In this document: piece by piece, positions 2,060 through 38,003 of the stretch
Position numbering within the stretch: position 1 is the stretch's first letter
Layout: every line of letters begins with the position of its first letter
NCBI GenBank assembly: GCA_964395265.1
Contig: CAYNDM010000002.1
Location: 1 to 38,475 of the forward strand
Direction of reading: 5' to 3'
Length of the DNA: 38,475 bases
Origin: an uncultured Bacteriovoracaceae bacterium
GTDB lineage: Bacteria > Bdellovibrionota > UBA1018
The notes under the pieces: generated by a model
Told to the model about the DNA's origin: nothing
The model's database searches: none
Seen by the model: only the letters and a program-made list of their open reading frames with translations
Program-made: the position numbers and the translations under genes

Positions 2060-2069
2060 AGGATAGTGT

Positions 2070-3269: not shown

Positions 3270-3303
3270 CGCGCTGAAAACCCCTCCTTTACACTGGTTC
3301 TAT

Positions 3304-4945: not shown

Positions 4946-5011
4946 GACATCAGGAACACGGAGGCGGAACCCGGCCCACCGGCCAAGCCGAGTCACCCAA
5001 GCCAGTCCAAG

Positions 5012-9540: not shown

Positions 9541-9678
9541 GGGTTCCAATCTGTACCGGTCCGTCAAACGGCTGACAAGCCGTGAGTTCGCCGGACCGGA
9601 GGGGTGCGAGCCCGATGAGATCCCTCTTGTAAGGTCCAAAAATCCCGCTGAAGATAAATGTACCTTGAAGGAGATCCT

Positions 9679-10122
9679 ATGAAAAACATGATCGTCACTC
9701 TGGTAGCGACACTGGCTCTGTCGGCGGGAGCGATTGCGGATGATACTTTCTCCGCGGCTTCCTCTGGATTCGATACGATTCGCTCCAGCGCTTCTGGCAC
9801 GACAACCGCCAAGAAGAAGAAAGCCAAGAACGCCAACAAGAAGGTTGCCAAAGGCACTGCCAAGGCTAAGAAAAAAAACCAGAAGCAGGCCAAGAAGACC
9901 AAGAATGAGGCGAAGAAAAAGACCGCTAAAGCCAAGGCGAAGAACAACGGCCGCAGCATCGCCAGCACGAAGCCGAAGAAGAGCGCAAAGAAAAAGGTCG
10001 AACAGGCCGCGCCTTTGGTGGAGCATGAGATGGAGCAGGACGCTATGCCTGCGAACGATCCAATGCCGTCTTCAGACGATATGGGCGAAGCTCTTCTTCC
10101 CGGCGATATGCCAACCCAGTAA
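9679..10122 (+). CDS. Exported lysine-rich (KAKK-repeat) protein with acidic C-terminal tail
   Basis: GGAG lies 7 nt upstream of the ATG at 9679. The signal peptide is MKNMIVTLVATLALSAGAIA|DD. About 80 residues follow that are dominated by K/A (KKKKAKNANKKVAKGTAKAKKKNQKQAKKTKNEAKKKTAKAKAK), then a D/E/M/P-rich tail. A terminator follows. Confidence 0.7.
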   Translation: MKNMIVTLVATLALSAGAIADDTFSAASSGFDTIRSSASGTTTAKKKKAKNANKKVAKGTAKAKKKNQKQAKKTKNEAKKKTAKAKAKNNGRSIASTKPKKSAKKKVEQAAPLVEHEMEQDAMPANDPMPSSDDMGEALLPGDMPTQ

Positions 10123-16383: not shown

Positions 16384-17493
16384 TTACCAGCTGTAAGACA
16401 AGCTTGCAGCGGTGAAGAGGCCACCGGTGAAGTCGAATACTGCATTGTCGACGTTCTCGGTGCCGGGATTGTTTGAACCCGTGCCGACTGCCCAATCAAA
16501 GGACACTTTATCGAAGTTGAACGAAGCACCAAGAGCTGCGTCCACGTCAGAAGCATTGGTCGTTTCACCCTGGCGATCCACCAGGAAGTACTGAAGACCC
16601 GCGCGTCCAGTGATCCAGCTTGCGAACTGGGACTCGATCGAGACGTTGATCGGAAGCGCCTGGCGATTCAGACCCAGGGTCTCAGACGTTGCGGTTCCAA
16701 GTTCAGTGCGATTGCGACCCGACCAGTAGCTGATGGCGTAGTTCAGGCTGGTGGTTTCGGTGGCTTTCATTGTACGTCCGATCCCAACGCCCCAGGCATT
16801 TACGCTTTGCTTTGCTTGGCCCTGGAGGGTCTGATTCCGCGAAACGAATGCAGCGTAAGGAATCCACTCACCCCATTTGTAACGGGTACCGACGGTGAAG
16901 CCGCCGAATTTGTTTTCGACGTTTTCCACGGTTTTGTCCTTACCAGCGAAGGTCAAGCGTGCGAAAGGCTCGAAGCCTTCGATCTGAGCACCAGCGCTCA
17001 AAGCCATCTCGGTTGCGGTGCGATCCTTGGCCGCCTGAGCTTTACCGTACATGAAGCCCAAGCCCCACTTCACACCCATATCGCCGCCCACAAAAATCTC
17101 GATGGGTTGCAATTCGGCGTCACTGACGCCAGCGGGGTTAGTAGCATTGTTTGCTCCAGCTCCGTAAGTTCCTTCAAGAGCCGTGATGCGGTTGAAGAAA
17201 AGGCCGGCAGAGATCGAGCCGAAGTTCGTGAAAACGCCGCCTTCAGCACCGGTGCCGGTAGTACCGTAGTTGTTCCACTTCTCTACGATCGCGAAGTTCT
17301 TCACGTCGTTCACGTAAGAAGGGTTGTAGAAGATGTTGTAGTTGTCGTCGTAATAGAACGTTCCGTGGGTGTTCGGAAGCACGCCGATCGCGGCTCCTTG
17401 TCCCATGGTGAGGATGCGAGCGCGAGAAGCGAAAGCATCACCCGAAGCCATCAATACCAATCCAGCAACGCTGAGTGCAACGATGCGTTTCAT
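16384..17493 (-). CDS. Outer-membrane porin-like beta-barrel protein
   Basis: GGAGG lies 8 nt upstream of the ATG. Signal peptide MKRIVALSVAGLVLMASGDAFA. The protein is Gly/Asn/Thr/aromatic-rich with alternating strands and ends ..AASLSYSW. Confidence 0.75.
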   Translation of the reverse strand: MKRIVALSVAGLVLMASGDAFASRARILTMGQGAAIGVLPNTHGTFYYDDNYNIFYNPSYVNDVKNFAIVEKWNNYGTTGTGAEGGVFTNFGSISAGLFFNRITALEGTYGAGANNATNPAGVSDAELQPIEIFVGGDMGVKWGLGFMYGKAQAAKDRTATEMALSAGAQIEGFEPFARLTFAGKDKTVENVENKFGGFTVGTRYKWGEWIPYAAFVSRNQTLQGQAKQSVNAWGVGIGRTMKATETTSLNYAISYWSGRNRTELGTATSETLGLNRQALPINVSIESQFASWITGRAGLQYFLVDRQGETTNASDVDAALGASFNFDKVSFDWAVGTGSNNPGTENVDNAVFDFTGGLFTAASLSYSW

Positions 17494-22811: not shown

Positions 22812-25800
22812 TCAGGCCGGTGAAGTCTGGACCTGGCTCCTGAAAAGCTCCAAATAGACCCCCGCTTTGCGCATCAGCTCGTCATGAGTCCCTTCCTCGA
22901 CGATTTTCCCGTCCTGCATGACCAGGATCCTGTCGGCGAGCCGAACCGATGAGAGGCGATGCGCGATGATGATCGATGTGCGATCCTTGAGAATTTCTTT
23001 GAGGTTGTTCAGCAAGGTTCTCTCCGAGCGGGCGTCCAGGGCGGAGGTCGCCTCGTCCAGGATCAGGATGCGTGGATTGCGATAAAGAGTGCGAGCGAAG
23101 GAGATCCTCTGACGCTCGCCTCCTGATAGGCCTGTTCCGTTCTCCGCCAGGGTGTATTCGTAGCCCCGGGGCAGCTCCGAAATGAATTCGAAGCGTTTGC
23201 CTGTTTGGCGGCCTCGTCGATCCTGTCCTGGCATGGGGTATCGTCTCCATAGGCGATGTTGTCCAGCAGGTTACCGGCGAAAAGGTCGTTGTTCTGGTTG
23301 ATGAAGCCGATCTGGTTCCTCAGGGAGAAAATCGAGATGAAGGAGCTGTCCATGTCATCGAAGTAGATCTTTCCGGAGCTAGGCCTCAGGTTGCCTGCGA
23401 TCAGGTTCGCCAGCGTCGTTTTTCCGCATCCGCTCGCGCCGACGATCGCCACGACCTGCCGGGGATAGATCGTGAGGTCCACGTCCTGGATGACCCAAGG
23501 CGCGTCTTCCGAATGCCTGAACTGGATGCGCTCCAGGCGGATTTTCCCACGAAGGGGGAAATGATGCTTCAGGCGGGTTTCGGATGGGCTTTGTTCGGGT
23601 TCCTGGGCAAAAGTCTCGGCCAGCTTTCGAAGGGAGACGTCGAATTGCATGACCTCGAATGTCAGGTGCGAGAGCTGCAGGAACGGCTCGAAGAAGAAAC
23701 CCATCAGGATCATCGCTGACAAGATCTGCCCCGTGGACATTTCTCCATTCATCGCGAGATGTCCGCCGATCCAGACCGTGAGCACCAGAACCGCTCTGAG
23801 GAGCCATTCGATGAAGACCCGACTCGACTGGAACACCATCCAGAAGTTCCTCAGAGAGCGAATCCGAAGTACCTGCAGGGTCTCCCATTTGTGTCGCATG
23901 GCCTGCTCGATCCCCAAGGCTTTGATGGCGGTGATCGCTCCAACCTGCTCGGAGATGATGCTCTGTGATTTCGAGTCCACGTCGAAAATCCTCGAGTACA
24001 TCGCGCGAAGGCGTTTCCACGGGGCTAGCAGGAGCGTGGTCGCGAGCATCGCTGCGACGACCGCCGTCAGAGCGAGAGGTGGCGCGTAAAGCGCTAGGGC
24101 AATTAAATAGACGAGGCTGGATATCGCCCCTGTCCCGCACTCGAGGACCGGGCCGGAGAGGGTTCGCTGGATCTGCGAAACCGCTTCGACGCGCGTGAGG
24201 ATCGATCCGGTGCGGTCCGAAGCGAATCGTCGGGTTGGAAGGGCCAGCGCGTGCCGAAGGAGAGACGTCGAGAGCTCTTCGTCGAAGCGGGTGGAGAACT
24301 CGACCCGCATGAGTTCCCATGCCGCTTTCACCGCGACGGACAGGAGAATCAGGAGAACCAATCCGCCGAGAATCCATTGGAGACCGTGCCAGGATCGGCT
24401 CACGAAAACTTGATCGAGCGCGACCTGAGTCAGCACTGGCAAGCCGAGCGTCAATAGCGAGCCTATGATGCTCAGGCCGAGGATCGCGAGGAGATCGGAC
24501 CGGTATCGCGCGATCAGGCGAGTAAGGCTCAGCGTCGATGCGGGATTCTCTTGCTCAGAAAGGGCTTCGCCGTTGATGGGAGCGCGGGTTTCCAGTAGTA
24601 GTCCGTCCCAATTCTTCTCGAAGTCCTCGCTCCGGATCCGGACCACGCCGCGCGCGGGGTCATGAACCAGAAGGGGGCCGTTCCGGCCTTCTCTCTTGAG
24701 AAGGATGACCAGCCGGTGCTTGAGCATCACCAGCGCCGGCAACGCGTGCTGGGCGATCAAGCGCATGCTGGTTTTCCGGCTGGATGTCTGCACGCCGAGG
24801 GATTCGAGAATTTCGGCCAGGATCCCTAGGGAAGCCTGCTTTCTGAGGAGGAGCTGGCTTTCGATCCCCGACGGGCTGACGACGATTCCGTGCAAAGCGC
24901 AGACGTTGACGACGCTCGCGACATAGCTCATCAGATCGGATTCGGCCCTGCAGGCACCGGGAATCTCGATCGAATTCGGGCGACTCTCCGTCGAGAGACC
25001 GACCACGGTTTCTCCCGGGAGCTCGCTCAATCCTCCCTGCCTGAGTTCCGAGGATCTCGTCGCGCTCGCCGTCGCGTAGATCCACGGGTCGTCAAAGATC
25101 GGCTCGAGCAATCCAAGGCTTTCGAACAGGGGCGCGGCTCGCGAAAGATCGAGCTGGTGGACCATCGAAAGCTCGCTGGCAATCGCCGTGTAGGAGAGGC
25201 GATGAGGAGGGACGATGGCTTGTCCTCCGATCCAGGTCCCGGAGCCGGCTTCCGTCGTGAGAGGGGCGGAGCCTTCGGTTGCCCGGATGGTGAACTTTCC
25301 GGATAGGACAAAGTGGATGAATCCCTCCGTGAGAGCGGTCGAGACGGGAATCTCGCGAGGATCCGGGGGAATGAGGGAAATTAGATGGATGATGCTGGAT
25401 TGGGCGATCCCGCGGTCTTCGAGAAAGCGTCTGAACGAACGAACGGCAGGCGAGCTGGATACGAGCTTGAGGTAAGCCAGGCAGTCCGGTCGCAGGGAGA
25501 GCTGCTCCATGAACCTGTTCGCCGGCAGAGTGATCACTTTAGTGCGGGTCTCGGCGAAAGCCGAACGGGCGTGGGGGCGGCCTTGGATGAGGTCCGGGAG
25601 CGAAAGCGCTCGGTGCTTCTGCAGGTAACCCGTTTCGCCTCGTTCGGACGAGAGACGGAGGCCGTGGTCGATCGGGATGATCAGCTCGGTGATCGGCTCG
25701 CCTTCGGTCGTGATCTGCGCGTCGGGAGCGTATGAGCGAACAGTCCCCTCGTTCAAGAGCATTTGCTCAAGCTCGGGAAGGATGGCCAGGAGCGAGCTTT

Positions 25801-25837
25801 CCTTCAATTCGATCAGGATTTTCGAAAAGGTCGCCAT
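22812..25837 (-). CDS. ABC exporter with two N-terminal cNMP-binding-like domains and a Cys-less C39-like domain; reading frame broken once in the NBD (frameshift near 23190)
   Basis: Track ORFs 23063..25837 and 22812..23234 are one gene. The first carries a CNB-like PBC (GRPHARSAFAE), a C39-like region lacking the catalytic Cys (ESDLMSYVASVVNV.. but KHRLVIL, VHDPARG), six-TM ABC_membrane and Walker A GASGCGKTT. The second continues with FEFISELPRGYEYTLAENGTGLSGGERQR, ILILDEATSALD and IIAHRL. The junction reads ..IDEAAKQANA/FEFISEL.. if one base is added at GCTTCG (plus-strand AA at 23191-23192). Confidence 0.8.
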
Positions 25838-25843
25838 GATCGG

Positions 25844-26467
25844 TCACTCGCCCGAATTCACGCCAAAGCCCAAAAAGCGCTCCGAGACCAAAGAGATGAT
25901 TCGTTGGCTCTCTGTGATGATGGATGCCTTCACGCTCATGCCCGAGCGCAAGGGATAGTCGCGGACGTAGACTTGCAAGGCAGGGTTCTCGATTCTGGCG
26001 AATACGACGTGGCAGTGAGGTTTTTTCGAGTCGCAGTCATCGGAGACGACCGGTTGCGATTCGATCACGGCGGTCAGGGTTCCGAAACTTTCTTCTGGAT
26101 AGGGATCGACGCGAATCACTGCTTTCGATCCTTGCTTCACTCGAAGGATGCCATGAGGAGGAACCTCGAGCTTGGCGAATACGCCGGAAGCGGACGGGGC
26201 GGCTTTGGTAGCTCCGGTCCGCGAAGAAAGCTTCACATCTGGGGCGGGGGATTCGTGAGGGAGGAAAAGAGTGCCGCGCGCGTCGAGGGTGACCGTTGTT
26301 CGCGCGAAGATCGAGAACGCCAGGAGGCCTCCCAGGCACGCGGTGAGGGAGTAGAGCATGAGCCTGACCGAGAATGAAGGAGGAGTCCTGATGAAGTCAG
26401 CTGTTGTCCAGGCGACTTCCGTAGCGTGATACTCCAGGCTCGCGCGTCTTCCTAAGTCCTCATCCAT
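25844..26467 (-). CDS. Short HlyD-family membrane-fusion-like protein (no coiled-coil hairpin)
   Basis: N-terminal TM (LMLYSLTACLGGLLAFSIF). Beta-rich segments typical of MFP barrel domains follow (GILRVKQGSKAVIRVDPYPEESFGTLTAVIES; LRSGMSVKASIITESQRIISLV). It ends 6 nt before the ABC gene start, suggesting an operon. Confidence 0.6.
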   Translation of the reverse strand: MDEDLGRRASLEYHATEVAWTTADFIRTPPSFSVRLMLYSLTACLGGLLAFSIFARTTVTLDARGTLFLPHESPAPDVKLSSRTGATKAAPSASGVFAKLEVPPHGILRVKQGSKAVIRVDPYPEESFGTLTAVIESQPVVSDDCDSKKPHCHVVFARIENPALQVYVRDYPLRSGMSVKASIITESQRIISLVSERFLGFGVNSGE

Positions 26468-26627: not shown

Positions 26628-29624
26628 ATGGATAAGATCACGGCAATCGAAAGCGCGCGGCTACGATCGGTCCTGACTGGACTTCCCGCCCAATGGGTAG
26701 AGGCCGTATTGGCGGATGCGGAGCTCGTCAATTTGCCCAAGGGGCAAGCGCTTTTTGCCCCCGGCGCCGAGCGCGTTCCCTGGATCGTGGCCGAAGGTCA
26801 GTTGTCTCGGGGATCCGAATCCGCGATATCAGGCGATCTGGTCGATCCGCGGGAGGACGCTTCGGATGAACGCGAGGCTATAGACTGGTCCGCTGAGGAA
26901 GTCAGTGGAGTCCTGCTTCTTCAGCCCTCCGCCTACGACCGGCTATTGGGCGAGGATCCCTCCGCACGCGAATACTTTCGTAGGTCCAGGCTTGAGTCCC
27001 TGCGCGGGCTCAAGATCGATCTGGTTCTGTCGGGGTTGCCGCAATCGCTGCTTTCTCCCACGCTGAACGCGTTGGTCGAGATGACATTCGAGGAATTCCA
27101 GAACGTTTGGGGGGATTCCACAGGGCTCCTGGTAGTCCAAGAAGGTGGGATCGAGGCGACTTCCCATAGGGGAGGAGACACGCTAGGAGTGGTCTGGCGT
27201 GGCGATTATTTTTTCTGTCGACGCACGCGCGCGTCGATTCAATGGATCGCGCGGCCAGAGACTCGGGTTTGGTGGCTCGGCTCCGGGCATTGGGCGCGGG
27301 CTTGTCGGACCAACCACGTCCACGGGATTTTTCCGGTACTCGATCCGTTGAAGAAAAAGATCGAGGCGGGACTGCACAAGCTCAAGGCGGTCTCGCCGAG
27401 GCACGCGAGCGAGGTCTCCGAGGACGATGGGGACGACGAGGATTTAGACCGCTTTTTTGCCAACGGAGAGGACTATGGTTGGAAGCCGCCAAGGCGATCC
27501 GCGGTCGTCATCCAGAACGACGAGATGGATTGCGCGGCGGCATGTCTTGCCTCGATCTGCGCTTACCATGGCAGAAGGATCGGCATCCAGAAGCTTCGCG
27601 AGCTCCTGCGGGTGAGCCGGGACGGAACGTCTCTTGAGTCACTCCTTGAGGGCGCGCTCACCGTGGGATTCGATGCCGTGCCGCTTGAGCTGGACGCATC
27701 GGACTTGGGGAATCTGAAACTGCCGTGCATCGCCCTCGTGGGTTATCACTACATGGTACTCTACGACTTCGGGCAAAGGGGCGCGCTCGTGATGGATCCC
27801 TCCGTGGGGATTCTGCGAAAGTCCTCCGAAGAGTTTCTGCGGGATTGGTCCGGTTACGCCCTGGCTCTCAGACCGACTGAGTCGCTTTTCCGTTATCCGG
27901 AGTCCGGTACGGATTATGCGAAGTATCTCGCGCTTCTGAAACACCACTGGGGCAGCGTAGGCGAGCTCTTTCTCGCATCTTCCCTGGGTCTGGCCTTGAG
28001 CCTGGCAGTGCCATTGGGGATGCGAACTCTGCTCGATGATATCGTGCCGAAAGGGAACCCGCCTGAGCTTCGCGTGGCGGTGCTCGTGGTTCTTGGAATC
28101 GTCGCGGTTTCGGGCGTGTTCGGGCTGATTCACCAGTACCTGATGGATCATCTGCGAGCGAGGCTGGAGACGAAGTTCTCCGCACTGTTCATCACGCATG
28201 TTTTCAAGTTGCCTCTCAGCTTCTTCTCTCTTCGGAAGGTCGGTGACATCACCTCCCGGATGGTCGATCTGATCTGGATCCGAGACGCCTTTACCGGCCA
28301 CGCCAACGAGATCATCCTCGGTGGGATGGCCATGCTGGCCTACCTCGTTCTGCTCGCTGCCTTTAGCTGGCAGGTCGCTTTGATGGCCTGCCTGATCCTG
28401 GGCGGCCTGGCCTTGTTCATCGTGTGGATTTTCAGAAAGCTCTCCGTCGTTCGAAAAGAGCTGATGAGCGCGACCGCCCTTACCAAGAGCATCTTATTCG
28501 AGCAGTTTCGCTCCCTCGAGACTCTGAAATCCTTGAATGCGCAGGTGCAGGCGCGGTGGCGATGGGAGTTTGCCCGTCTCAGGATGCTGCAGGCCGAACG
28601 CAAGTCCCGATTCCTGCTTTGCGGGGTCTTGGGTGCGTCGGAGCTGGCGCGGAACGCGTTGATCATCGGCGCTCTCTCGTTGGGCGCGGTGCTCCTGCTC
28701 GATGGAAAGCTTTCGCCGGGTCAGCTCGTGGCCATCAACGCGATCATAGTCGGGCTCACCACGCCGTTGCTGATGGTCATCGATCGACTCGGAGATTGGA
28801 ACCAGGTCGTCGTCTCCTTCGGGAGGGTCGACGACGTGTTCGTCGCTTTGCCGGAGCAGCGATGCGCCAAGGAGCGACCCGTCGAATTCGCTTTCGCCAA
28901 CGAGATCCGCTTCGAGGACGTTTACCACTCTTACGGGGATCCTTCGGAGGATGTCCTGAATGGAGTCAGTTTCTCGGTCAGGGCCGGGGACACGGTGGCC
29001 TTCGTGGGATCGAGCGGCTCGGGGAAGAGCACGCTAGCTTACTTGATCAGCCGTCTCTACCGTCCCCGCGAGGGCAGGATCCTGATCGATGGGGTGGAGT
29101 CCGGGGATTTCGCGCTCGAGGAGCTCAGGCGGAACGTGGGCATGGTGATTCAGGAGAACAGCCTGTTTTCAGGCTCGATTCTCGAGAACATCGCCTCCGG
29201 ATCCCCTCACCCCGATCTGGAGCGCGCGATCCGCGCGGCGATCCTGGCGGACGCCCATGAGTTCATCTCGCGACTTCCACAGGGCTACCTGAGTCAGCTC
29301 GGCGAGGGAGGCATGGGCCTTTCGGGAGGCCAAAAGCAGAAGATCAATATTGCCCGCGCGCTGTACAATGACCCGCCGATCCTCATTCTTGACGAGGCTA
29401 CCTCCGCCTTGGACGCCATCTCGGAGGAGTCGATCATCCGGAACCTTCGCAATATCGGGCGCAAGCGAACACTGATATTCATCGCTCACCGCCTGAACAC
29501 CATCCGGCATGCCGATCGGATCCTAGTGCTCGAAAAAGGAAAGATCGTAGAATCGGGGAGCCATGACGAGCTTCTCGGCCGAGGCGGAGTATACTCCCAG
29601 CTCCTGCGCGATCAGCTATCCTGA
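26628..29624 (+). CDS. Peptidase-containing ABC transporter (PCAT): cNMP-binding-like domains + intact C39 peptidase + TMD + NBD
   Basis: C39 catalytic set: VIQNDEMDCAAACLASI (Gln/Cys), GYHYMVLYD (His), VMDPSVG (Asp). Six-TM ABC_membrane region is present. NBD: Walker A GSSGSGKST, signature LSGGQKQ, Walker B ILILDEATSALD, H-loop IAHRL. Confidence 0.85.
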   Translation: MDKITAIESARLRSVLTGLPAQWVEAVLADAELVNLPKGQALFAPGAERVPWIVAEGQLSRGSESAISGDLVDPREDASDEREAIDWSAEEVSGVLLLQPSAYDRLLGEDPSAREYFRRSRLESLRGLKIDLVLSGLPQSLLSPTLNALVEMTFEEFQNVWGDSTGLLVVQEGGIEATSHRGGDTLGVVWRGDYFFCRRTRASIQWIARPETRVWWLGSGHWARACRTNHVHGIFPVLDPLKKKIEAGLHKLKAVSPRHASEVSEDDGDDEDLDRFFANGEDYGWKPPRRSAVVIQNDEMDCAAACLASICAYHGRRIGIQKLRELLRVSRDGTSLESLLEGALTVGFDAVPLELDASDLGNLKLPCIALVGYHYMVLYDFGQRGALVMDPSVGILRKSSEEFLRDWSGYALALRPTESLFRYPESGTDYAKYLALLKHHWGSVGELFLASSLGLALSLAVPLGMRTLLDDIVPKGNPPELRVAVLVVLGIVAVSGVFGLIHQYLMDHLRARLETKFSALFITHVFKLPLSFFSLRKVGDITSRMVDLIWIRDAFTGHANEIILGGMAMLAYLVLLAAFSWQVALMACLILGGLALFIVWIFRKLSVVRKELMSATALTKSILFEQFRSLETLKSLNAQVQARWRWEFARLRMLQAERKSRFLLCGVLGASELARNALIIGALSLGAVLLLDGKLSPGQLVAINAIIVGLTTPLLMVIDRLGDWNQVVVSFGRVDDVFVALPEQRCAKERPVEFAFANEIRFEDVYHSYGDPSEDVLNGVSFSVRAGDTVAFVGSSGSGKSTLAYLISRLYRPREGRILIDGVESGDFALEELRRNVGMVIQENSLFSGSILENIASGSPHPDLERAIRAAILADAHEFISRLPQGYLSQLGEGGMGLSGGQKQKINIARALYNDPPILILDEATSALDAISEESIIRNLRNIGRKRTLIFIAHRLNTIRHADRILVLEKGKIVESGSHDELLGRGGVYSQLLRDQLS

Positions 29625-29632
29625 TGCTCGTC

Positions 29633-31222
29633 TCAACGGATGTATCGTCCGGGAGAAATGATGCCGTGCGGATCCACGGCCTGCTTTATGGAGCGGAGCA
29701 GTTCATTGTAGCTTCCACGTATCGGAGGCAGGGATCCCATCGAATTCACGCCGAGCCGGTAAGGAATGTAGCCGAGGCGAATTGACTTCTTGAAGAGGAA
29801 CTCGTAGCAGGCCATCGCCCTCTCATCCTCTCCGGGGTAATCGCGATCGAAGGGACAGCGGGTGACCGCTTTGAGAGTGGGGCCGACGGTGGAAAGTTGA
29901 AGCCCTACCCCGATTTCGAGCTGAAATCGATCCATCGCCTCTTCGAGCAAATCCGTGTACAGGCGAACGTCTCGACCAGTCATTGGGATAATGGGAACGA
30001 ACCAGAATAGGCCGCATCGATCTCCGTCCGGGTCGATTTTAGCCGGGATCGGCATCTTCTTGCGCCAATAGGCCTCGAACAGGGTGTTCTTGCTGGGATA
30101 TCCCACGCACGGATTTCTTCGGAGCGAATCCGCCATTTGAGCGATCTGTCCTGGGCTGAAAGGAGAGCGCTTGGACTGTCTGAGCCGCCTGATCGTGTCC
30201 TGACTGAGAAAAAAGAGGTCGCCTACGCATTTGGAGATCTCGCGCGCGACCAGTGAGCATTCGGCCTCGCCTATTTCCTTTGAGGGCGCCGCGATAGGCA
30301 CTTGGCCGTTCCAGAGGTTCACGCCATGGATTTGCCGCAACTTCTTTCTGAGCGAAGGTGAGAGGCGGCGTTTTCCATTCGCGCTTTCCCAGGGAAACTG
30401 CTGGTTGATCATGATGTGGAGCAAGTCGCTGAAAATCACGGTGCGGCTTCGAAGAGCGTCGCTGAGCCTCATTTGGCGGAATTTGTCCACGACCGCCTCC
30501 AGCTTTTTCGGCTGGTCGGTCCCGAAGGAAATGACTTCGAAATGCTTTGGCTTGGGGTAAAGGGCCAAGGTCATTCGTGTCGCTATTCCCAATCCGGATT
30601 GGATGAAAATCCCTTCGACCCTGGGACCGACGCCGCGATTGTAGAGGTTTGCCGATCGGCTGGATTCGAACCTCGACATCCCCGTATAGAGGAGTTCTCC
30701 GTTGGGCAACACGAGCTCGATCGCATGGACGCGGGGAAGTTGGTCGTCTCCGTTCTTCCCGTATCCGGCTCCGTCTTCCATGATATTGCCGATGAGGCTG
30801 CCTTCAGGGTTCGCGCTGATGTTGACCATGAAGGGAGACTTGCGCTTCAGCAGGTACTCGGACGCCATTTCGGCGGATACGCCTGGCTCGACCGTAATGT
30901 ACCCCATCTCCTCGTTGTATTCGACGATCCGATTGAGTCTCCCCAGGTACAAGAGGACACAGTGATCGGATGGGGGGACCATCGAGCCGTATCCCCAGTT
31001 TTTTCCCAGGCTGACCGGATAAAGCGGGACCTTGAATTTCGCCGCCGTGCGGACGCAGGCTTGGACTTCTCGCGTGGTGCGGGGCCTGAGGACGGCTCTG
31101 ATGCGCTGACGAGTAGGGAAGGTGCAGCTTGAGAACTTCCTGATGGAGTCAGGATCGGAAAGGACGTGCGAGGTACCGATCGCGCGCTTCCATTCTGCCA
31201 TTGCGCGAGCGAGATAGGGCAT
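29633..31222 (-). CDS. FAD-linked oxidase, VAO/PCMH (vanillyl-alcohol oxidase / p-cresol methylhydroxylase) type
   Basis: FAD_binding_4 pattern: ..AVLRPRTTREVQACVRTAAKFKVPLYPVSLGKNWGYGS...LGRLNRIVEYNEEMGYITVEPGVS... The C-terminal segment is VDPHGIISPGRY. The GxNxGYG motif resembles VAO/PCMH rather than the GlcD subgroup. Confidence 0.7.
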   Translation of the reverse strand: MPYLARAMAEWKRAIGTSHVLSDPDSIRKFSSCTFPTRQRIRAVLRPRTTREVQACVRTAAKFKVPLYPVSLGKNWGYGSMVPPSDHCVLLYLGRLNRIVEYNEEMGYITVEPGVSAEMASEYLLKRKSPFMVNISANPEGSLIGNIMEDGAGYGKNGDDQLPRVHAIELVLPNGELLYTGMSRFESSRSANLYNRGVGPRVEGIFIQSGLGIATRMTLALYPKPKHFEVISFGTDQPKKLEAVVDKFRQMRLSDALRSRTVIFSDLLHIMINQQFPWESANGKRRLSPSLRKKLRQIHGVNLWNGQVPIAAPSKEIGEAECSLVAREISKCVGDLFFLSQDTIRRLRQSKRSPFSPGQIAQMADSLRRNPCVGYPSKNTLFEAYWRKKMPIPAKIDPDGDRCGLFWFVPIIPMTGRDVRLYTDLLEEAMDRFQLEIGVGLQLSTVGPTLKAVTRCPFDRDYPGEDERAMACYEFLFKKSIRLGYIPYRLGVNSMGSLPPIRGSYNELLRSIKQAVDPHGIISPGRYIR

Positions 31223-31370
31223 AGGCTCATTCTCCGGAAGGATTTCGCAGATTTTCCACAGTATAGGAAATGCGACCGGCAGGGGCTAGGTGAAAATGAA
31301 TGGCGGATTCCGGAGAGAGACCGCACGTTGCGAACGGTGAGGGCGCCCCTTCGCATGCGCGTGGCGCATA

Positions 31371-31404
31371 AACAAAAAGGGATGGGCTGTGATCAGCCCA
31401 TCCC
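31371..31404 (-). terminator. Strong rho-independent terminator directly after the small peptide gene
   Basis: On the minus strand, GGGATGGGCTG-ATCA-CAGCCCATCCC (11-bp perfect stem, plus coordinates 31379-31404) is followed by TTTTTGTT (31371-31378). Confidence 0.85.
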
Positions 31405-31450: not shown

Positions 31451-31543
31451 TTAGTACGGAGGCTTAAATACAGGCTTTGCACCACCTTTGATCTTTTTCA
31501 GACTCGATTTGCTGAGTTTCTTTTTGCTTGCTTGCTTCTTCAT
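31451..31543 (-). CDS. 30-aa double-glycine-leader precursor peptide: MKKQASKKKLSKSSLKKIKGG|AKPVFKPPY
   Basis: My own translation of the minus strand; the ORF is absent from the track because it is under 60 aa. AGGAG lies 5 nt upstream of the ATG at 31543, and the stop TAA is at 31451-31453. The leader matches LSxxELxxIxGG at L-12, S-11, L-7, I-4 and G-2/G-1. A terminator follows, and C39-ABC exporters are encoded nearby. Confidence 0.7.
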   Translation of the reverse strand: MKKQASKKKLSKSSLKKIKGGAKPVFKPPY

Positions 31544-31883
31544 ACGTTCTCCTAATCCCCGTAATCGGATCGGTGACCTCGCACGGTTTACGGGGAAGAT
31601 CCCGGGCGAAGTCTAGGCCCCCTCGCTGAATGATTCCGTCGGCTCTCGCCTCAGGTGCTATCAGATCAGTGACCCAATACTTGATAGATTAAGTCAGAAA
31701 TTAAGATGCGACAAGTGAATTTTTCCGAGCGAGCTCGAGCCTGAAATTCGTCTTCACGAAATCCGTGAAAATCGCCCGGAATTTAGGGTATTTTTTGACT
31801 GAAAAAGAGTGTGTCGCGATGTGCTCGTGACACAGGCAGATCGATTGCCTCGAACGCGGATCCCATGCTCGCTTTTGGCTTCA

Positions 31884-31944: not shown

Positions 31945-32882
31945 ATGAAAAGAGGCAATAGGACGAACGCGACCACTTCGGCTGTGAGCGGGTCGCCGCT
32001 GGTCAGCATCATCATGCCTGCCTACAACGTGGAAAAGTACATCGGGGATTCGATTCGCTCCGCTCTCGCTCAGTCTCACAGAAACATCGAGCTTATCATC
32101 GTCGACGATGGCTCGCGCGATCGGACCGCGCGCGTCTGCCAGACGTGGTGTCGGCGCGACCGTCGAGTCCGGCTGATCCGAGCGAGGAATGGAGGGGTCG
32201 CCAGAGCCCGGAATATTGGGATCCGGAGCGCCAAGGGCGAGTGGATCGCGTTCATGGACTCGGATGATCTTTGGAAGGCAAGGAAGCTTGAGCGGCAGCT
32301 CCGAGCCGCGCGCGAAATGGGCGCGGATGTGGTCTATACGGGGGCATGGATGTTCTGGAACGATCGTCCGGAGCGCCCCGAAGTGCCTCTCGGTATCAGG
32401 GCCGGGCGTTTTACCTCCGAAGCGATGCTGAATGCCTGCTGGGAGGCAGTCACTTCCTCCCTTCGACGGTGCTCATGTCGAGAGAGATCATCCGCAGGAC
32501 GGGCCTCTTCAAGGAAAAGGGCTGGATCGCGAGAGAGGTGGAAGACTGGGAGTTCTTCATCCGAATGGCGGATCGGGGAGGCGGCGTATTTTTTGGGTTG
32601 GAAGATTGCCTGGTTCTATATCGGGTCAGGCCGGGATCGACCTCAAGCTCGCATGAGCCTCACCATTGGGGAATGCTGAAGCTGCTCGATATCTATCGGG
32701 AGCACCCTAAAGCCAAGAAAGTCGTGATCAAGGCGTCGTATATGCAGACATGTCGCAGGATCGTGGCATTTCAGTATGGGAATCGGGCCTTCAATCAGCT
32801 CGGAAAGATCTTCGAAGCCGTACGGAGCCACTATCCCGGCGAACAGAAGCGCTTCCTCGAGTTCATCAACCAGATCCTGTGA
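31945..32882 (+). CDS. Family-2 glycosyltransferase, reading frame broken once (near 32436)
   Basis: GT2 motifs VSIIMPAYNVEKYI, ELIIVDDGSRD and AFMDSDD are in ORF 31945..32679. The continuation LLGGSHFLPSTVLMSREIIRRTGLF...EDWEFFIRMA...LVLYRV is in ORF 32346..32882. Adding one C to the CC at 32435-32436 gives ..SEAMLNALLGGSHF... Confidence 0.75.
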
Positions 32883-32885
32883 GGC

Positions 32886-33962
32886 TCATTTCTTACCGAT
32901 GATGATGGCCCTGGCCTGTCTCTCGAAACGAAGGATACTGCGCCGCGAGAACCCGGCAGTTTTGAGCCAGGCGCTGTAAGTCGCGGCCGGATAGACCATG
33001 CCTTCGCCGGTGGCCAGGCAGTGGAAGTAAAGGGAGAGGGCGGCAGCGCCCATGTCTCCCGTCTCGTCGTCGTTGCTGACCGAGTTGAAGATCATCAGCG
33101 AGCCGCCGGGTTTGAGAGCGTCGAAGCTCTTTTTCATCAGCTTCAAGTTCGTCTTCGGCGAGTAGATGTTGAAGATATGGGAAAAGTAGATCCCATCCAT
33201 TCCTGAAGTAAACCGGTCCTTGACGAAGTTGCCGGGATGGATGCTGATTCGATCCGAGAGCCCGTGTTTGGCGATATTCTTCTTCGCCCGCCGGCAGATC
33301 GAGGGTAAATCGAAGATCGTGATTTTCAGGCGAGGGTAGCGCTGGCACATCCGGATGGCATGGGTGCCATCGGCGCCGCCTACGTCCATGAGGTGCCTCA
33401 TCTTGCCGATCGTGGGATCGAGGGCGGGAAGATACACATCCTCGAGCTCGTCGGTGATGTATTTGGCGATGCCCCTCATCCAGGCATGAAAGATGGTCTC
33501 ATTGTCGCGGTGGCCGCTGAGGCGTTCGTAAAGCGTGTTTCCCTTGCCAGGGAATTCCTTGAGTCCGGTGTTCGTGCCCTTCTTCAGGGATTCGAGCAGA
33601 TGGTTCATGGGCCGGTAGATCAACGAGTGATTGGCCTCGAGGATCGGACGGACGTTGTATGGACTTCCCTCTCCGAATAGTGCCGTGGCGACCGGGTGAT
33701 TGCTGTAGGTGCCGCGGGTCCGGTTCTTCTTGATGAGATTGAGCGAACAACAGGCCATGAGCAGGACGCGGGCGGAATTCTCGGGGATTCTCAATGCCGA
33801 ACGGATATCCGTCATGGTACGGCCCGGGCGGTTGGCGAGGTAGGTGAACAAACCCAGTCTGGTTGCGGCGTAGATTGCTTCCGAAAAGGCGAAACCGTAA
33901 ATCAGCAGATCCAGGTGATGCTCGGGATGGAATGTGTTCACCGTGCGTTGTCGTCTTGCCAT
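32886..33962 (-). CDS. Class I SAM-dependent O-methyltransferase (Methyltransf_2 / COMT-ASMT-like, with N-terminal dimerisation wHTH)
   Basis: SAM motif I is HLMDVGGADGTHAI, with acidic D at ITIFDLP. The N-terminal helix-rich domain is LIYGFAFSEAIYAATRLGLFTYLA. A strong SD (GAGAGGGGAAG) lies upstream of the ATG. Confidence 0.8.
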   Translation of the reverse strand: MARRQRTVNTFHPEHHLDLLIYGFAFSEAIYAATRLGLFTYLANRPGRTMTDIRSALRIPENSARVLLMACCSLNLIKKNRTRGTYSNHPVATALFGEGSPYNVRPILEANHSLIYRPMNHLLESLKKGTNTGLKEFPGKGNTLYERLSGHRDNETIFHAWMRGIAKYITDELEDVYLPALDPTIGKMRHLMDVGGADGTHAIRMCQRYPRLKITIFDLPSICRRAKKNIAKHGLSDRISIHPGNFVKDRFTSGMDGIYFSHIFNIYSPKTNLKLMKKSFDALKPGGSLMIFNSVSNDDETGDMGAAALSLYFHCLATGEGMVYPAATYSAWLKTAGFSRRSILRFERQARAIIIGKK

Positions 33963-34163
33963 CTTCCCCTCTCAGTCATTTTTTTGGTGGTGACTGTAGT
34001 ATGCGCAGACTCACGCGATTTCTTCAAGATTACGCGGCTTGCGTTCGCTTCTGTCAATTTCCTGACTTCAAGGGGGATCGTCCGGTTCACGGGTTTCTGT
34101 AGACATTGTCAAGAAATCTCCCGATGATTGAAAGAGATCCAAGACATCGCAAGGGAGATCCGA

Positions 34164-35363
34164 ATGACCAAGTCCGGAGTTGGTTATAGCGAGAAAGTGA
34201 ATTCGAACGAAGCAGGGACGGAGGCAGCCCAGCAGGCTCTAGCGTCCAGCAAGATATCGGGCAGGAAGGTCGCCTTGCTCTTCTCGACTGCCAAGCACAA
34301 CCCCAAGGAGCTTCTGTCGTCGGTGCTTTCGGTGCTCGGTGCGGATACCAAGATCTACGGCGGCTCCGTTTGCGGCATCATCAGCAAGGAAAAGGTCAGC
34401 TACAACGGCTTCGAGGTCGGTCTCGCCGTGTTCTCCGCCGACGAAGTCAAGATCGACGGTCACATCGTCAGAAACATCAAGGGCAGGGAGCTGGAGTCCG
34501 GCGTCGAGCTGGGGCAACAGCTTGCATCGCGGAAGTTCGCGGAGGACGATACGTTATTCGTCGGATTCGAGGCGATCCGAGGCGAGGGGCCAACCCAGCT
34601 GTTGAACTTCGGAACGCCGATCCTCGAAGGCATGTCGCAGTCGCTGAAGTCCTGGCCGAACACGATAGGCGCTGCATTTCAGGGCGATTTCAATTTTCAG
34701 TCGTCCTTCACGTTTTTCGACAGCGAGGTCGAGACGGCCGCCGCCATCGCGCTGATCATTTCGGGCAAGAAGAGCCGCTCCGTCCTGATGCATGGCTGCA
34801 CGCCCATGAGCGACTATTACAAGATCACCAAGTGCGCGGGCAACGTCGTGCTCGAGATCGACGGCAAACCGGCGCTCGAGCGGGTTTCGGAGATTCTCGG
34901 GCCCGGCTCGGACAAGACCTGGGAAGAGTACCCTCTCTATCTGAATTTCGGACGAAATCACGGCGACAAGTTCGACGATTTCATCGAGGAGCGCTACACG
35001 AACAATATGTGCGTGGCGATCGATCCCCCGAGCAAGGCATTGGTGCTTTTCGAGCCCAGCTTCAAGGAAGGCGACGAGTTCCAGCTCATGCGCCGCCATA
35101 AGGAGTTCAATACTATGGAGGAGCGCCTGGACGGATTTTTCAAGGAAGGGAAGGCGCCGTTTTTCAATCTTTACGTCGACTGCGTGGGCCGTTCAGGCAT
35201 GCTCATGGGAACCGAGACCGAAGACGCGACCGTCGTTCAGAAATTCGTGAAGGACGCCCCTGCGGCGTTCTTGGGCATTTACGGGGGCCGAGAGATCGCG
35301 AAGTTCGGCGCCCAGCCCGCAGTGGTCTGCCTCACCGGCGTGCTCACGTCGTTCGCGGACTGA
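34164..35363 (+). CDS. FIST-domain (FIST_N/FIST_C) sensory protein
   Basis: AGGGAG lies 6 nt upstream of the ATG at 34164 (the track starts at TTG 34128). The layout and motifs are typical of FIST proteins: ..AGTEAAQQAL...VALLFST...IYGGSVCGIIS...; later FFNLYVDCVGR and FLGIYGGREIA. Confidence 0.7.
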   Translation: MTKSGVGYSEKVNSNEAGTEAAQQALASSKISGRKVALLFSTAKHNPKELLSSVLSVLGADTKIYGGSVCGIISKEKVSYNGFEVGLAVFSADEVKIDGHIVRNIKGRELESGVELGQQLASRKFAEDDTLFVGFEAIRGEGPTQLLNFGTPILEGMSQSLKSWPNTIGAAFQGDFNFQSSFTFFDSEVETAAAIALIISGKKSRSVLMHGCTPMSDYYKITKCAGNVVLEIDGKPALERVSEILGPGSDKTWEEYPLYLNFGRNHGDKFDDFIEERYTNNMCVAIDPPSKALVLFEPSFKEGDEFQLMRRHKEFNTMEERLDGFFKEGKAPFFNLYVDCVGRSGMLMGTETEDATVVQKFVKDAPAAFLGIYGGREIAKFGAQPAVVCLTGVLTSFAD

Positions 35364-35376
35364 ATGGATCAGAGCG

Positions 35377-38003
35377 ATGTCTGAAGATCGGGACAGGATA
35401 GCCATCTCGAGAAAGAGGCCAGCTATTACAAGAAAAAGGTCAACGAACTTACCGGACATAACCTTTCGCTCGAGTACAAGATCGGCGCTCTCATCAACGA
35501 GCTCAAGCAGAAAAGGCTCGGGTTCGAGTTGCTCTCCCAGCTTCAACAATCGATCGGAACCTATCGCGAGGCGTCCGGCATCTTCGAGTTCGCACTCAAG
35601 GCGATGATTTCCTCGCTCAATATGGAGCGAGCCGTGGCGCTGGTCCCGGCGGCGCGGGAGAACGTCTACAGCATCTCGAAGATCCTGGGATACACTGCTG
35701 AGCTCGAGGAACGGCTCAAAGAGAAGAAGATCGAAGTCCCGAAAGAGCTTCAGGCAGAGGGAAGCTTCTTGGTCGTCAACAAAAGCAGCAGCAGCAACGA
35801 GTTGATCGAGAGCATACGCGAGGCGCTGGACCTGCCGTACTTCATTCTCGTTCCGGTGCTGGTGGAAAAGAAGCCCATCGGGATCATCATCACCGGCAGG
35901 ATGCAGGAGCAGAGGCCCGTCAAGCTTCCTCTCGACAAAGGGGATGCCGAGACCGTGCAGTCCATCGGCGGACTGATCGCCGCGTCGGTCCACAACCTTC
36001 GAGTTTACGCGCTTGAGGAGACCCAGAAACTCCAGACGGATTTTTTCGCCAATATCTCCCACGAGTTCAGGACGCCGATCACCCTGACTTTGGGCCCCCT
36101 CGAGGGGCTGCTTTCGGGTCGCTACGGGAACCTCCCCGAGGCGGCAAAAAACCAGGTTGAGGTGATGTTGCGAAATCAGCAGCGCCTTTTGAAATTGATC
36201 AACGAGATCTTGGACCTGACCAAAGTGGAAGCCGGGAAAATGCAGCTGCATGCGTCCAAGGTTCGCAGCTTCAACAGCTTCGTTCAGGACAGGGTCGAGC
36301 AGTTCAGGTCGCTGGCAGAAAAACGAGGGATCGAGCTTAGGTCCAAGCTCGATCCCGAGGTGGATAAGGCGGAGCTTTACCTCGACCTAGAGAAGATCGA
36401 CAAGGTCATCTTCAATCTCTTGTCGAACGCCCACAAATTCACCAAATCCGGCCATGTCGAAGCCAGAACGGCGATCCAGGATGGATCTTTTGTCTTCACC
36501 GTCTCTGACACCGGGATCGGCATCAAGGCGGATCAGCTCATCTATGTCTTCGATCGGTTCAAACAAGCCGATGGAAGCTCGTCGCGAGAGTACGCGGGAA
36601 CTGGAATCGGTCTCTCCCTGGTCAAGGAGCTGGTGCAGCTGCATTCCGGCCAGATCTCGGTTCATAGCGAGTACGGAAAAGGAACCACGTTCACGGTCAC
36701 GATCCCGGTGGGCAAGGCTCACTTGGATCCCGCTAGCCTTGCGGATGCCCCCGATGCCGAACCAATTCAACCCATGCCGGCGTCGGTAAACCGGGTCGTC
36801 GAGATTCGCGAGGGGGTGGCGGAGAAGGACGAGCTCGAGGAGATCGAAGCGCTCAATGCCAAGACTCGCGAAAATTGGGTGGAGGGTCGAGGGACGATTC
36901 TCTACACGGACGATAACCGCGACCTGCGCTGTTATGTCTACGAGATCCTCTCGGAGCATCATAATGTCTACCTGGCTCATCATGGCAAAGCCGGTCTCGA
37001 GCTGGCTCTGCAAGTGGACGTCGATCTGATTCTCTCGGATCTCATGATGCCTGTCATGACGGGCACCGAGTTTCTGCGAAGTGTTCGAATGGAGAACCGC
37101 CTGCAAGGTATCCCATTCGTCTTATTGACCGCGAAGTCGACCAGCGATTCGAAACTGGAAGGACTCGAGACCGGGGCGGACGATTACCTGAGCAAGCCTT
37201 TCTCCGAGAGCGAGCTCAAGGCGAGGATCAAGAATCTCATCAAGCTTCGTCAGCAGCATTTGCGGATCCGGCGCGAGCTCGAGGCGGCCAGGCAGATCCA
37301 GCAAGCATTGCTTCCGAAGCTCGACCTGAGGGGAAAAAATTACCTACTCGACGCGCTTTACGAGCCGTCCGAGGAGCTTTCCGGCGATTTCTACGACTAC
37401 CTTGAAAACGGGGATTGGGTCTATTTCTACCTGGCCGACGTCACCAGTCATGGGACGGCCGCGGCCCAGGTCACCTACCTGCTCAAGACAATGATGGGGC
37501 AGCTGATTACCGAGGGGGAGCCTCCGGCGCTTTCGAGGCTTCTCGCGGAGCTCGCGCGTCGGTACTGCGAGTACGGGCTGAACTACGGCATCGGGATCCA
37601 GGTGGCCCGTTTCAATAAAAAGCGTCAAATCATGGAGTGCGCGATGAGCAATGCCCCCAGGGCCATCGTGTTCAGGAACTGCAATCAGGAGATCCTGCGT
37701 CTTCGTCCGGGACCGATTATTGACAGCGCGACCGGCGGGCGCAAAATCAGGCCCGAGGATTTCGAGGTGTGCCAGCTCGCGCTGAAACCAGGTGATTCGG
37801 CTTATTTCTTCACCGACGGCTGTTACGAGCTGCCGACAGGCGACGATTCGGCCCCGTTGGGCTACAGAAGGTTCAGCAAGATCATATCCGACCTTAACCG
37901 CAGCCAATGGAAGGAAGACCTCCTGACTACGCTCAAGGGGTTTCGGTCCGCCGGCAGCAACGACGTGGACGATATGACCGTCCTGATGTTCCGCCTTCAA
38001 TAG
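35377..38003 (+). CDS. Hybrid signalling protein: coiled coil + GAF-like + HisKA/HATPase_c + REC + PP2C/SpoIIE phosphatase; 5' end apparently frameshifted (near 35403)
   Basis: H-box FFANISHEFRTPIT. HATPase boxes LLSNAHKFT, DTGIGI, GTGIGLSLVKEL. REC: ILYTDDN...LILSDLMMPVMTG...DDYLSKPF. PP2C/SpoIIE: LSGDFYDY, ADVTSHG, FFTDGCYE, DDMTVLMF. The intact ORF starts at TTG 35529. However, the same frame is protein-like (HLEKEASYYKKKVNELTGHNLSLEYKIGALINELKQKR) back to 35385 with no start codon. ATG 35377 (MSEDRDRIA) joins it if one C is added to the GCC at 35401-35403. Confidence 0.8.

Follow-up and report, generated by a model that had tools for sequence, protein, structure and literature searches.

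Does a 30-codon open reading frame (ORF) lying beside a flavoenzyme gene code for a peptide whose last residue, a tyrosine, is modified by that enzyme? The question is raised by a stretch of 38,475 nt (referred to below as the window; positions 1 to 38,475 of contig CAYNDM010000002.1, assembly GCA_964395265.1) from an uncultured Bacteriovoracaceae bacterium of the Bdellovibrionota, related to the predatory Bdellovibrio. A first-pass annotation, made from the letters of this stretch alone, had described the product of the ORF as a peptide with a near-canonical double-glycine (GG) leader and a nine-residue core. The analysis of the ORF, of its neighbours and of related loci in other bacteria leads us to favour, with reservations, the view that it codes for a real precursor of a peptide made by the ribosome and modified after translation (RiPP), the C-terminal Tyr of which would be modified by the adjoining flavoenzyme before the peptide is cleaved and exported.

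A 30-codon ORF with the features of a double-glycine precursor

The ORF was found at positions 31451..31543 on the minus strand, the strand having gone unstated in the first-pass annotation. The translation of 31543..31451, read directly from the sequence, is MKKQASKKKLSKSSLKKIKGGAKPVFKPPY followed by a stop codon, that is, a 21-residue double-glycine leader (MKKQASKKKLSKSSLKKIKGG) and a nine-residue core (AKPVFKPPY) in which Tyr comes last. No longer ORF is possible in this frame. The gap that holds the ORF measures 722 bp and is bounded on one side by the minus-strand flavoenzyme gene and on the other by a divergent, plus-strand glycosyltransferase gene. The core is directly preceded by Gly20-Gly21 (KGG/AKPVFKPPY, the slash marking the predicted cut), and the translation holds every leader residue that had been listed earlier: Gly at -1 and -2, the hydrophobic Ile at -4 and Leu at -7 and -12, Ser at -8 and Lys at -15. 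The count of nine Lys in the 21-residue leader is likewise correct; over the whole precursor 11 of the 30 codons specify Lys, scattered rather than arranged in a run. The core is short, cationic and proline-rich. As had been pointed out, it contains no Cys, Ser or Thr, which rules out glycocin or lanthipeptide chemistry on it. KPPY is likewise a segment of oncocin, a proline-rich peptide of insects, which we take as a lead only.

The claim that the ORF has its own Shine-Dalgarno (SD) sequence and terminator was borne out. An AGGAGA sequence (31548..31553, minus strand) was read 4 nt before the ATG, and RNA folding predicted a stem-loop directly 5′ of it (31556..31596, minus strand), which might possibly stabilise the 5′ end of the transcript. 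A terminator scan located an intrinsic terminator between the peptide and flavoenzyme genes (31369..31404, minus strand), beginning 46 nt past the stop codon of the precursor. Its hairpin (31404..31379) combines an 11-bp stem, eight pairs of which are G-C, with a loop of 4 nt and a tail reading TTTTTGTTT, and is kept in the minimum-free-energy fold. The region from 31600 to 31365 folds with a z-score of -4.7, none of 200 shuffled versions folding equally well.

The precursor gave five weak matches to NCBIfam profile hidden Markov models (HMMs), all of them double-glycine leader families; three of these matches stop at Gly21 and two extend one or two residues beyond it. The best was NF047798 (Chryseobacterium-type leader; E 0.0024, 18.0 bits against a cut-off of 23.5), the others being NF033383 (EntF bacteriocin induction factor; E 0.006), TIGR04149 (E 0.014, 15.2 bits against a cut-off of 25), TIGR01847 (12.9 bits against a cut-off of 15.7) and NF047792. 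When ten shuffles of the precursor with the same composition were searched, none matched any of the 18,950 models, indicating that the order of the residues, and not the lysine content, carries the leader signal. Pfam yielded a weak match to DUF5841 only (E 0.02). The GG leader reading of the first-pass annotation is thus supported by the register of the motif and by HMM matches that the shuffles lack, although no curated cut-off was reached. The same annotation had called so cationic a leader atypical; the nine Lys are present, but this wording may be too strong, the best model being that of a Bacteroidota leader family. Chryseobacterium-type leaders are lysine-rich.

How often such an ORF might arise by chance was estimated by counting ORF starts with hydrophobic residues at -12, -7 and -4, a G[GAS] pair, an SD-like site and a terminal Tyr or Trp. 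The window has one of these, and the comparison loci (1.59 Mb) have 16, of which some are likely Nif11 precursors. At this density, at most ∼0.007 such ORFs would be expected by chance in the 722-bp gap.

Compared with known GG-leader peptides (class II bacteriocins, ComC/ComA, PCAT1 and NHLP/Nif11 peptides), the window peptide shares the GG pair at -2/-1 and the hydrophobic residues at -4, -7 and -12, but its leader is very short, lacks acidic residues and has Lys at -15 and a net charge of +9, while its core has only nine residues. The mature peptide of a class II bacteriocin has roughly 25–60 residues and its gene is usually accompanied by an immunity gene; with a core of nine residues, and with no immunity-like gene recognised in scans of the window, an unmodified bacteriocin of this class was discarded. 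That the ORF codes at the least for a real, exported GG-leader peptide is considered likely.

The gene downstream codes for a CndG-like flavoenzyme

The first-pass annotation had named Tyr among the likely chemical handles of the core, and we agree. It had not made the connection with the gene that comes next on this strand, directly downstream (29633..31222, minus strand), which starts 228 nt beyond the ORF and codes for a 529-aa flavin adenine dinucleotide (FAD) enzyme of the vanillyl-alcohol oxidase (VAO)/p-cresol methylhydroxylase (PCMH) family. Since this gene appears to specify an oxidative decarboxylase of the CndG type, the idea of Tyr as a handle becomes a concrete prediction. The protein matches Pfam FAD_binding_4 (PF01565; E 3e-21) and, over 99% of its length, CndG of Chondromyces crocatus (E 1.5e-119, 418 bits, 38% identity), named 1′-carboxy-chondrochloren decarboxylase in UniRef. 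Matches were also obtained to the structures of PCMH (E 5e-47) and VAO (E 7e-34), and to eugenol oxidase. By homology the enzyme is assigned to the 4-phenol-oxidising VAO/PCMH subgroup. A catabolic role as a p-cresol methylhydroxylase is unlikely, given 418 bits for CndG against 164 bits for PCMH and the absence of an adjoining cytochrome subunit gene. A phenolate triad, Tyr78/Tyr488/Arg489, is present. The alignment to VAO starts at query residue 42, equivalent to residue 72 of the chain, and this offset of +30 places Tyr78 on VAO Tyr108; the register of the whole triad to VAO Tyr108, Tyr503 and Arg504 is in part assumed. The enzyme shows no obvious signal peptide and no domain beyond those of CndG.

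In the described members CndG, FeeG and HyeB, the substrate is an N-acylated tyrosine, and its oxidative decarboxylation by way of a quinone methide gives a 4-hydroxystyryl enamide (PMC11350588; PMC11959600). The window enzyme belongs to the same family and to the same 4-phenol subgroup, keeps the Tyr/Tyr/Arg triad, and would be expected to catalyse the same reaction. What differs is the source of the substrate: CndG, FeeG and HyeB are supplied by non-ribosomal peptide synthetase (NRPS)/polyketide synthase lines or by N-acyl synthases, whereas the candidate in the window is a ribosomal GG-leader peptide, and the locus has a peptidase-containing ATP-binding cassette (ABC) exporter instead of an assembly line. 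With hyellamide, the product of the HyeB pathway, the window shares a nearby glycosyltransferase gene.

The C-terminus of the precursor, -Pro-Tyr-COOH, fits the predicted substrate, an N-acylated tyrosine with a free carboxylate. Among 5.8 billion sequences, the two closest relatives of the flavoenzyme have 41–42% identity to it; both are encoded directly after an NRPS gene and before a cytochrome P450 gene, and one of the two synthetases ends in a thioesterase domain. This arrangement makes a peptidyl-Tyr a plausible substrate in this branch of the family. No NRPS was found among the scanned window ORFs of 150 aa or more, the longest of which has 998 aa, and no Tyr-terminated candidate substrate other than the precursor was seen in the window.

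An exporter with an intact C39 peptidase lies in the same locus

Alignments to PCAT1 and ComA, together with Pfam and NCBIfam matches, identify the product of 26628..29624 (plus strand) as a peptidase-containing ABC exporter (PCAT) of 998 aa, in which an N-terminal extension of ∼290 aa is followed by a C39 peptidase, a transmembrane domain and an ATPase. The C39 domain that had been ascribed to it earlier is present (Pfam E 5e-31). Its best NCBIfam model is TIGR03796 (NHLM ABC1; E 4.5e-137, under the cut-off of that model). Residues Gln296, Cys302, His374 and Asp390 align to PCAT1 and make up the full C39 catalytic set; opposite Cys302, the peptidase-domain entry 7n87 of PCAT1 has Ala, and we take this entry to be a catalytic-Cys mutant. 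The exporter gene lies ∼2 kb from the precursor ORF and converges on the flavoenzyme gene, from which it is separated by 8 nt. Candidate genes for a precursor, a tailoring flavoenzyme and a leader-removing exporter, as expected of a RiPP cluster, are found together, and the 998-aa transporter is predicted to be the leader-cleaving exporter of the precursor.

Pfam returned no match for the N-terminal 290 residues of the exporter, nor for a 314-aa neighbour. About 20 residues N-terminal of the C39 domain, the exporter contains a strongly acidic linker, SEDDGDDEDLD (residues 264–274; window 27417–27449). That this linker might complement the +9 charge of the leader is pure speculation.

Related enzymes occur beside ribosomal precursors in other lineages

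For comparison of gene contexts, 160 loci encoding homologues of the flavoenzyme were fetched. A strict filter for GG-leader ORFs ending in Tyr found none beside these 160 homologues, while relaxed filters uncovered a family of Nif11-type precursors ending in Trp. Seven loci pair an enzyme homologue with such precursors: those of Coleofasciculus, Dulcicalothrix, Goleter, Moorena and Rivularia, and two metagenome contigs. Each has one to three precursors with the cleavage motif ...E(A/L)VAGG (L008:1156-1479; L034:7747-8142; L042:1523-1843; L046:5367-5837; L062:2498-2953(-) and 4932-5171; L111:904-1170, 1460-1765 and 1887-2216; L147:4957-5424(-) and 5464-5904(-)), and a C39-ABC gene lies within 6 kb in four of the seven. 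The last residue is Trp in all 11 precursors. In the enzyme tree, the seven Nif11-linked enzymes form one clade, separate from the window enzyme, and all seven have Leu at position 78 (GKNWGLGS), where CndG, the NRPS-linked and FeeM-linked enzymes and the window enzyme have Tyr (GKNWGYGS). Across 164 sequences, this position is Tyr in 150, Leu in 13 and Phe in one. The cyanobacterial system thus resembles that of the window in joining a homologous flavoenzyme to a GG-cleaved, aromatic-ended precursor, often with a C39-ABC exporter, but differs in its long Nif11 leader, in the replacement of Tyr by Trp in the precursor, and in the Leu that takes the place of the first phenolate-binding Tyr in the enzyme. 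A literature search found no description of a Nif11/Trp precursor family beside a VAO/PCMH enzyme.

A further pairing was found in a metagenome-assembled genome (MAG) of the Ardenticatenales (Chloroflexota; L076:1721-6295). It comprises an 89-aa NHLP-clan precursor (3742-4011, minus strand; NF038399, E 3.6e-9) that ends in ...SRSCQCCVTVLY, with CCVTVLY at its C-terminus, a LanL-like class IV lanthionine synthetase gene after it (1721-3772, minus strand), and a divergent gene for a VAO/PCMH enzyme of the Tyr78 type (4550-6295). The locus could make a lanthipeptide in which the C-terminal Tyr has been decarboxylated. In each of these two other lineages the last residue of the precursor matches the active-site type of the enzyme, and this occurrence of homologues beside ribosomal precursors with a matching last residue is the strongest indirect support for the pairing of enzyme and peptide in the window.

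Other recurrent neighbours were seen in the comparison loci. In L049 (4177-7560), a homologue of the Leu78 type is preceded by two genes, one for a radical SAM protein and one for 189 aa that matched no family, and the locus may be another in which a ribosomal peptide is made. A conserved protein of ∼263 aa with a hydrophobic N-terminus appeared, by clustering of neighbouring ORFs, in 39 of 80 genome loci, mostly from Bryobacterales/Acidobacteriota (among them L016, L020, L026, L035, L050, L055, L084, L094, L098, L120, L136 and L139); tblastn with one representative detected it in 12 of 162 loci. Genes for LuxR-type regulators and for a GT1-type glycosyltransferase also recur; the branch of the enzyme family that the ∼263-aa protein accompanies is the largest one. 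In the Bacteroidota loci nearest to the window enzyme in the tree (L071, L077, L080 and L151), a conserved gene for 233–262 aa precedes the flavoenzyme gene and one for 710–720 aa follows it. The former might, as a guess, code for an N-acyl-amino-acid synthase; a FeeM query gave no tblastn match in these loci.

Other genes of the window

Divergent from the exporter gene are two minus-strand genes. One (25844..26467), recognised from its sequence and from a TIGR01843 match to its C-terminal part only, codes for a short periplasmic adaptor of the HlyD/AprE type (207 aa), with an N-terminal transmembrane helix and a beta-barrel but without the coiled-coil hairpin. In a metagenome contig (L164:3374-3841) an AprE-barrel adaptor of 155 aa follows a similar, 1016-aa C39-ABC gene, so the short form is probably genuine. 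The other gene (22812..25837) codes for a second ABC transporter, split by a frameshift into ORFs 23063..25837 and 22812..23234, which has two cNMP-binding domains, a degenerate C39-like domain in which Ser replaces the catalytic Cys, a transmembrane domain and an ATPase. The layout is similar to that of the NHLM system by which NHLP/Nif11 peptides are exported (HlyD together with two ABC proteins), including the partner with degenerate C39 and cNMP-binding domains; it differs in the 207-aa form of the adaptor, and the curated transporter models were matched under their cut-offs.

On the precursor's other side, and divergent from it, lies the gene for a family-2 glycosyltransferase (GT2; 31945..32882, plus strand), also frameshifted (ORFs 31945..32679 and 32346..32882). 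It is followed by a gene for a COMT-type O-methyltransferase with a dimerisation domain (32886..33962, minus strand; Pfam PF00891 and PF08100), which gave an NCBIfam FlxJ-family match far under the cut-off. The GT2 is a possible tailoring enzyme, and the O-methyltransferase could methylate the phenol after decarboxylation, the cluster membership of both being uncertain.

Farther away (34128–38003, plus strand), 3–6 kb from the flavoenzyme gene, are genes for a FIST-domain protein and a hybrid histidine kinase. In a deltaproteobacterial MAG (L006:2140-7659) a FIST and histidine kinase pair occurs again, there directly upstream of a homologue of the Leu78 type; its recurrence may reflect shared regulation or coincidence. 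The window further contains minus-strand genes for EpmA and a PopA-family porin (8308–10026 and 16384–17493), the EpmA protein being 60–67% identical to proteins of Oligoflexia/Bdellovibrionia MAGs; the two assign the contig to Bdellovibrionota.

A proposed pathway for the peptide

In the pathway that we favour, a short and abundant transcript made up of the 5′ hairpin, the SD sequence, the 30 codons and the terminator would yield the 30-aa precursor, while the flavoenzyme gene would be expressed by partial read-through of the terminator or from a separate promoter. Terminators that limit transcription into the enzyme gene are common for precursor genes. The CndG-like enzyme would bind the free C-terminal Tyr in the cytoplasm, with Tyr78, Tyr488 and Arg489 holding the phenolate; transfer of a hydride to FAD would give a quinone methide, from which CO2 would be expelled. 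The expected product is the 4-hydroxystyryl enamide AKPVFKPP-NH-CH=CH-C6H4-OH (a loss of 46.005 Da; M 999.59). The lysine-rich leader of 21 residues would serve as a signal for export and cleavage only. The C39 domain of the exporter would cut after Gly-Gly (Gly21), and the modified nonapeptide would leave through the transporter, aided by the short HlyD-like adaptor and perhaps also by the other ABC protein, that with the degenerate C39 domain. The O-methyltransferase and the GT2 may decorate the phenol later, as in the glycosylation of hyellamide; O-methylation would have to follow decarboxylation, since a mechanism of the VAO type needs a free para-hydroxyl group.

Weighing the alternatives

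Several findings speak against this pathway. A strong terminator divides the precursor ORF from the flavoenzyme gene, scans upstream of the ORF for sigma-70 and sigma-54 consensus sequences found nothing usable, and the exporter and GT2 genes lie on the strand opposite to the precursor. The G+C content at third codon positions (GC3) of the ORF is 0.48, compared with 0.70–0.77 in the adjoining genes. The leader has Lys at -15, all five of its HMM matches fall under the curated cut-offs, and a core of nine residues is unusually short. The tblastn search that the first-pass annotation had proposed as a check gave no match to the precursor peptide in the 162–164 fetched loci, a degenerate DNA scan of metagenome contigs (GG-x-KP-x-FKPPY-stop) gave none either, and phmmer searches of 1.84 billion representative proteins returned no true homologue; the lone match, to a 2344-aa protein, had no discrete matched stretch and was attributed to compositional bias. 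Exact look-ups of the peptide and of the flavoenzyme in a gene-position index retrieved no record. In the searched collections no orthologue was found, the best relative of the flavoenzyme having 42% identity and that of the transporter 37%, nor was there an orthologous locus: the pairings of precursor and enzyme seen elsewhere are analogous only and belong to other lineages. Nothing resembling the peptide occurs in the loci of the transporter's closest homologues (37% and 29% identity), one of which holds a GG-leader peptide of the ordinary acidic kind. Most enzyme homologues (those of Bryobacterales, and the FeeM-linked and NRPS-linked ones) have no adjoining ribosomal precursor. Finally, two genes of the cluster are frameshifted, that of the second ABC protein at ∼23.2 kb and that of the GT2 at ∼32.4 kb, neither at a homopolymer, so the locus may be decaying or may contain assembly errors. 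No frameshift was noticed in the other window genes inspected.

The lack of conservation evidence, the atypical GC3, the strong structure of the region and the lack of an adjoining precursor beside most enzyme homologues would all agree with an ORF that has no functional product, having arisen by chance in a small non-coding RNA or in the 5′ leader of the flavoenzyme gene; the enzyme would then use a phenolic or N-acyl-tyrosine substrate supplied by genes in another part of the genome. This is the least unlikely of the alternatives, but it must be set against a canonical SD sequence at optimal spacing from an ATG start, leader HMM matches that depend on amino-acid order and not on composition, the very small number of such ORFs expected in the gap, an Rfam scan of the intergenic region with no family match, and the position of the ORF between a GG-peptide exporter and a predicted Tyr-specific enzyme. 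Very improbable, by comparison, is a role as an attenuator leader peptide, in which stalling at Lys codons would set read-through of the terminator into the flavoenzyme gene. A short ORF, a strong terminator and a same-strand gene do follow each other in the right order, and more than a third of the codons are for Lys; yet these are dispersed, the predicted fold contains no anti-terminator pairing and leaves 46 nt between stop codon and stem, nothing connects the downstream gene with lysine metabolism, and both the GG-leader register and the terminal Tyr would go unexplained.

It is also conceivable that the peptide is a real GG peptide exported without modification, as a cationic pheromone or a bacteriocin-like product, the flavoenzyme, GT2 and O-methyltransferase belonging to an unrelated small-molecule pathway. 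The terminator between ORF and enzyme gene would suit such an arrangement, as would the GG-leader features next to an intact PCAT, the weak match to the EntF induction-factor family (E 0.006) and the FIST sensor and hybrid histidine kinase 3–6 kb away. We nevertheless consider it unlikely. A predicted Tyr C-terminal decarboxylase is encoded directly downstream, and on the same strand, of a peptide that ends in Tyr, as would only ∼3% of random ORFs (an estimate from typical amino-acid frequencies, not a computed value); no NRPS or N-acyl synthase that could supply the enzyme was seen in the 38 kb; two other lineages combine the same enzyme family with aromatic-ended precursors; and a core of nine residues is short for the GG-type pheromones known to us.

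Relation to known chemistry and significance

The terminal Tyr, the GT2 and the methyltransferase brought mycofactocin to mind. This was rejected: the core ends in -PPY, compared with -GVY in MftA, the match of the GT2 to MftF is a generic family-2 match far under the cut-off, and no radical SAM gene, MftB-like partner or 2-oxoglutarate (2OG) oxygenase was found among the scanned window ORFs. The radical SAM enzyme MftC and a 2OG/Fe oxygenase of plant cyclopeptide alkaloid biosynthesis both convert a ribosomal C-terminal Tyr to a styryl-type enamide; the same type of decarboxylation is predicted here, by an enzyme of an unrelated family. The LanD/HFCD flavoproteins (HFCD standing for homo-oligomeric Cys decarboxylases that contain flavin) that form aminovinyl-cysteine in RiPPs (EpiD, CypD and TvaF) also differ, having the HFCD fold with FMN or FAD where the window enzyme is a VAO/PCMH protein with FAD, and acting on Cys by a thioaldehyde/enethiol route where Tyr and a quinone methide are predicted for the window. 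A 2026 survey noted FAD-linked oxidase genes in some lanthipeptide clusters, with no function assigned. In our literature search, outside of which most subscription journals fell, no case came up of a VAO/PCMH enzyme tailoring a ribosomal peptide. The parts of the system are of known kinds (GG-leader peptides with PCAT exporters, and CndG-type decarboxylases), while their combination is undescribed in the literature searched.

The system would be very small, with a single gene of 30 codons, a soluble flavoenzyme and an exporter. A C-terminal enamide would remove a negative charge and would be expected to protect the peptide from carboxypeptidases. Such enamides occur in bioactive natural products of unknown biosynthesis, e.g. 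the sponge peptide gombamide A (PMC12426817). An enzyme with a free C-terminal Tyr as its sole requirement, and in which no leader-binding domain is apparent, could become a general tool for modifying peptide C-termini. The cyanobacterial family with Trp-terminal precursors and a Tyr-to-Leu change in the active site offers a hypothesis on specificity. To our knowledge, few natural products have been described from Bdellovibrionota.

If the proposed pathway is correct, flavin-dependent oxidative decarboxylation of acylated Tyr to a hydroxystyryl enamide, known from non-ribosomal and N-acyl-amino-acid pathways, would extend to gene-encoded peptides. More tentatively, and as a suggestion that could well prove wrong, CndG-type VAO/PCMH enzymes may make up an unrecognised class of RiPP tailoring enzymes that turn a C-terminal aromatic residue into an enamide (a styryl- or indolyl-vinyl amide). 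The class would have been recruited independently at least three times, for GG-leader/Tyr precursors in Bdellovibrionota, Nif11/Trp precursors in cyanobacteria and NHLP-lanthipeptide/Tyr precursors in Chloroflexota, with Tyr or Leu at the position of VAO Tyr108 tracking specificity for Tyr or Trp, and the window peptide would be its minimal member.

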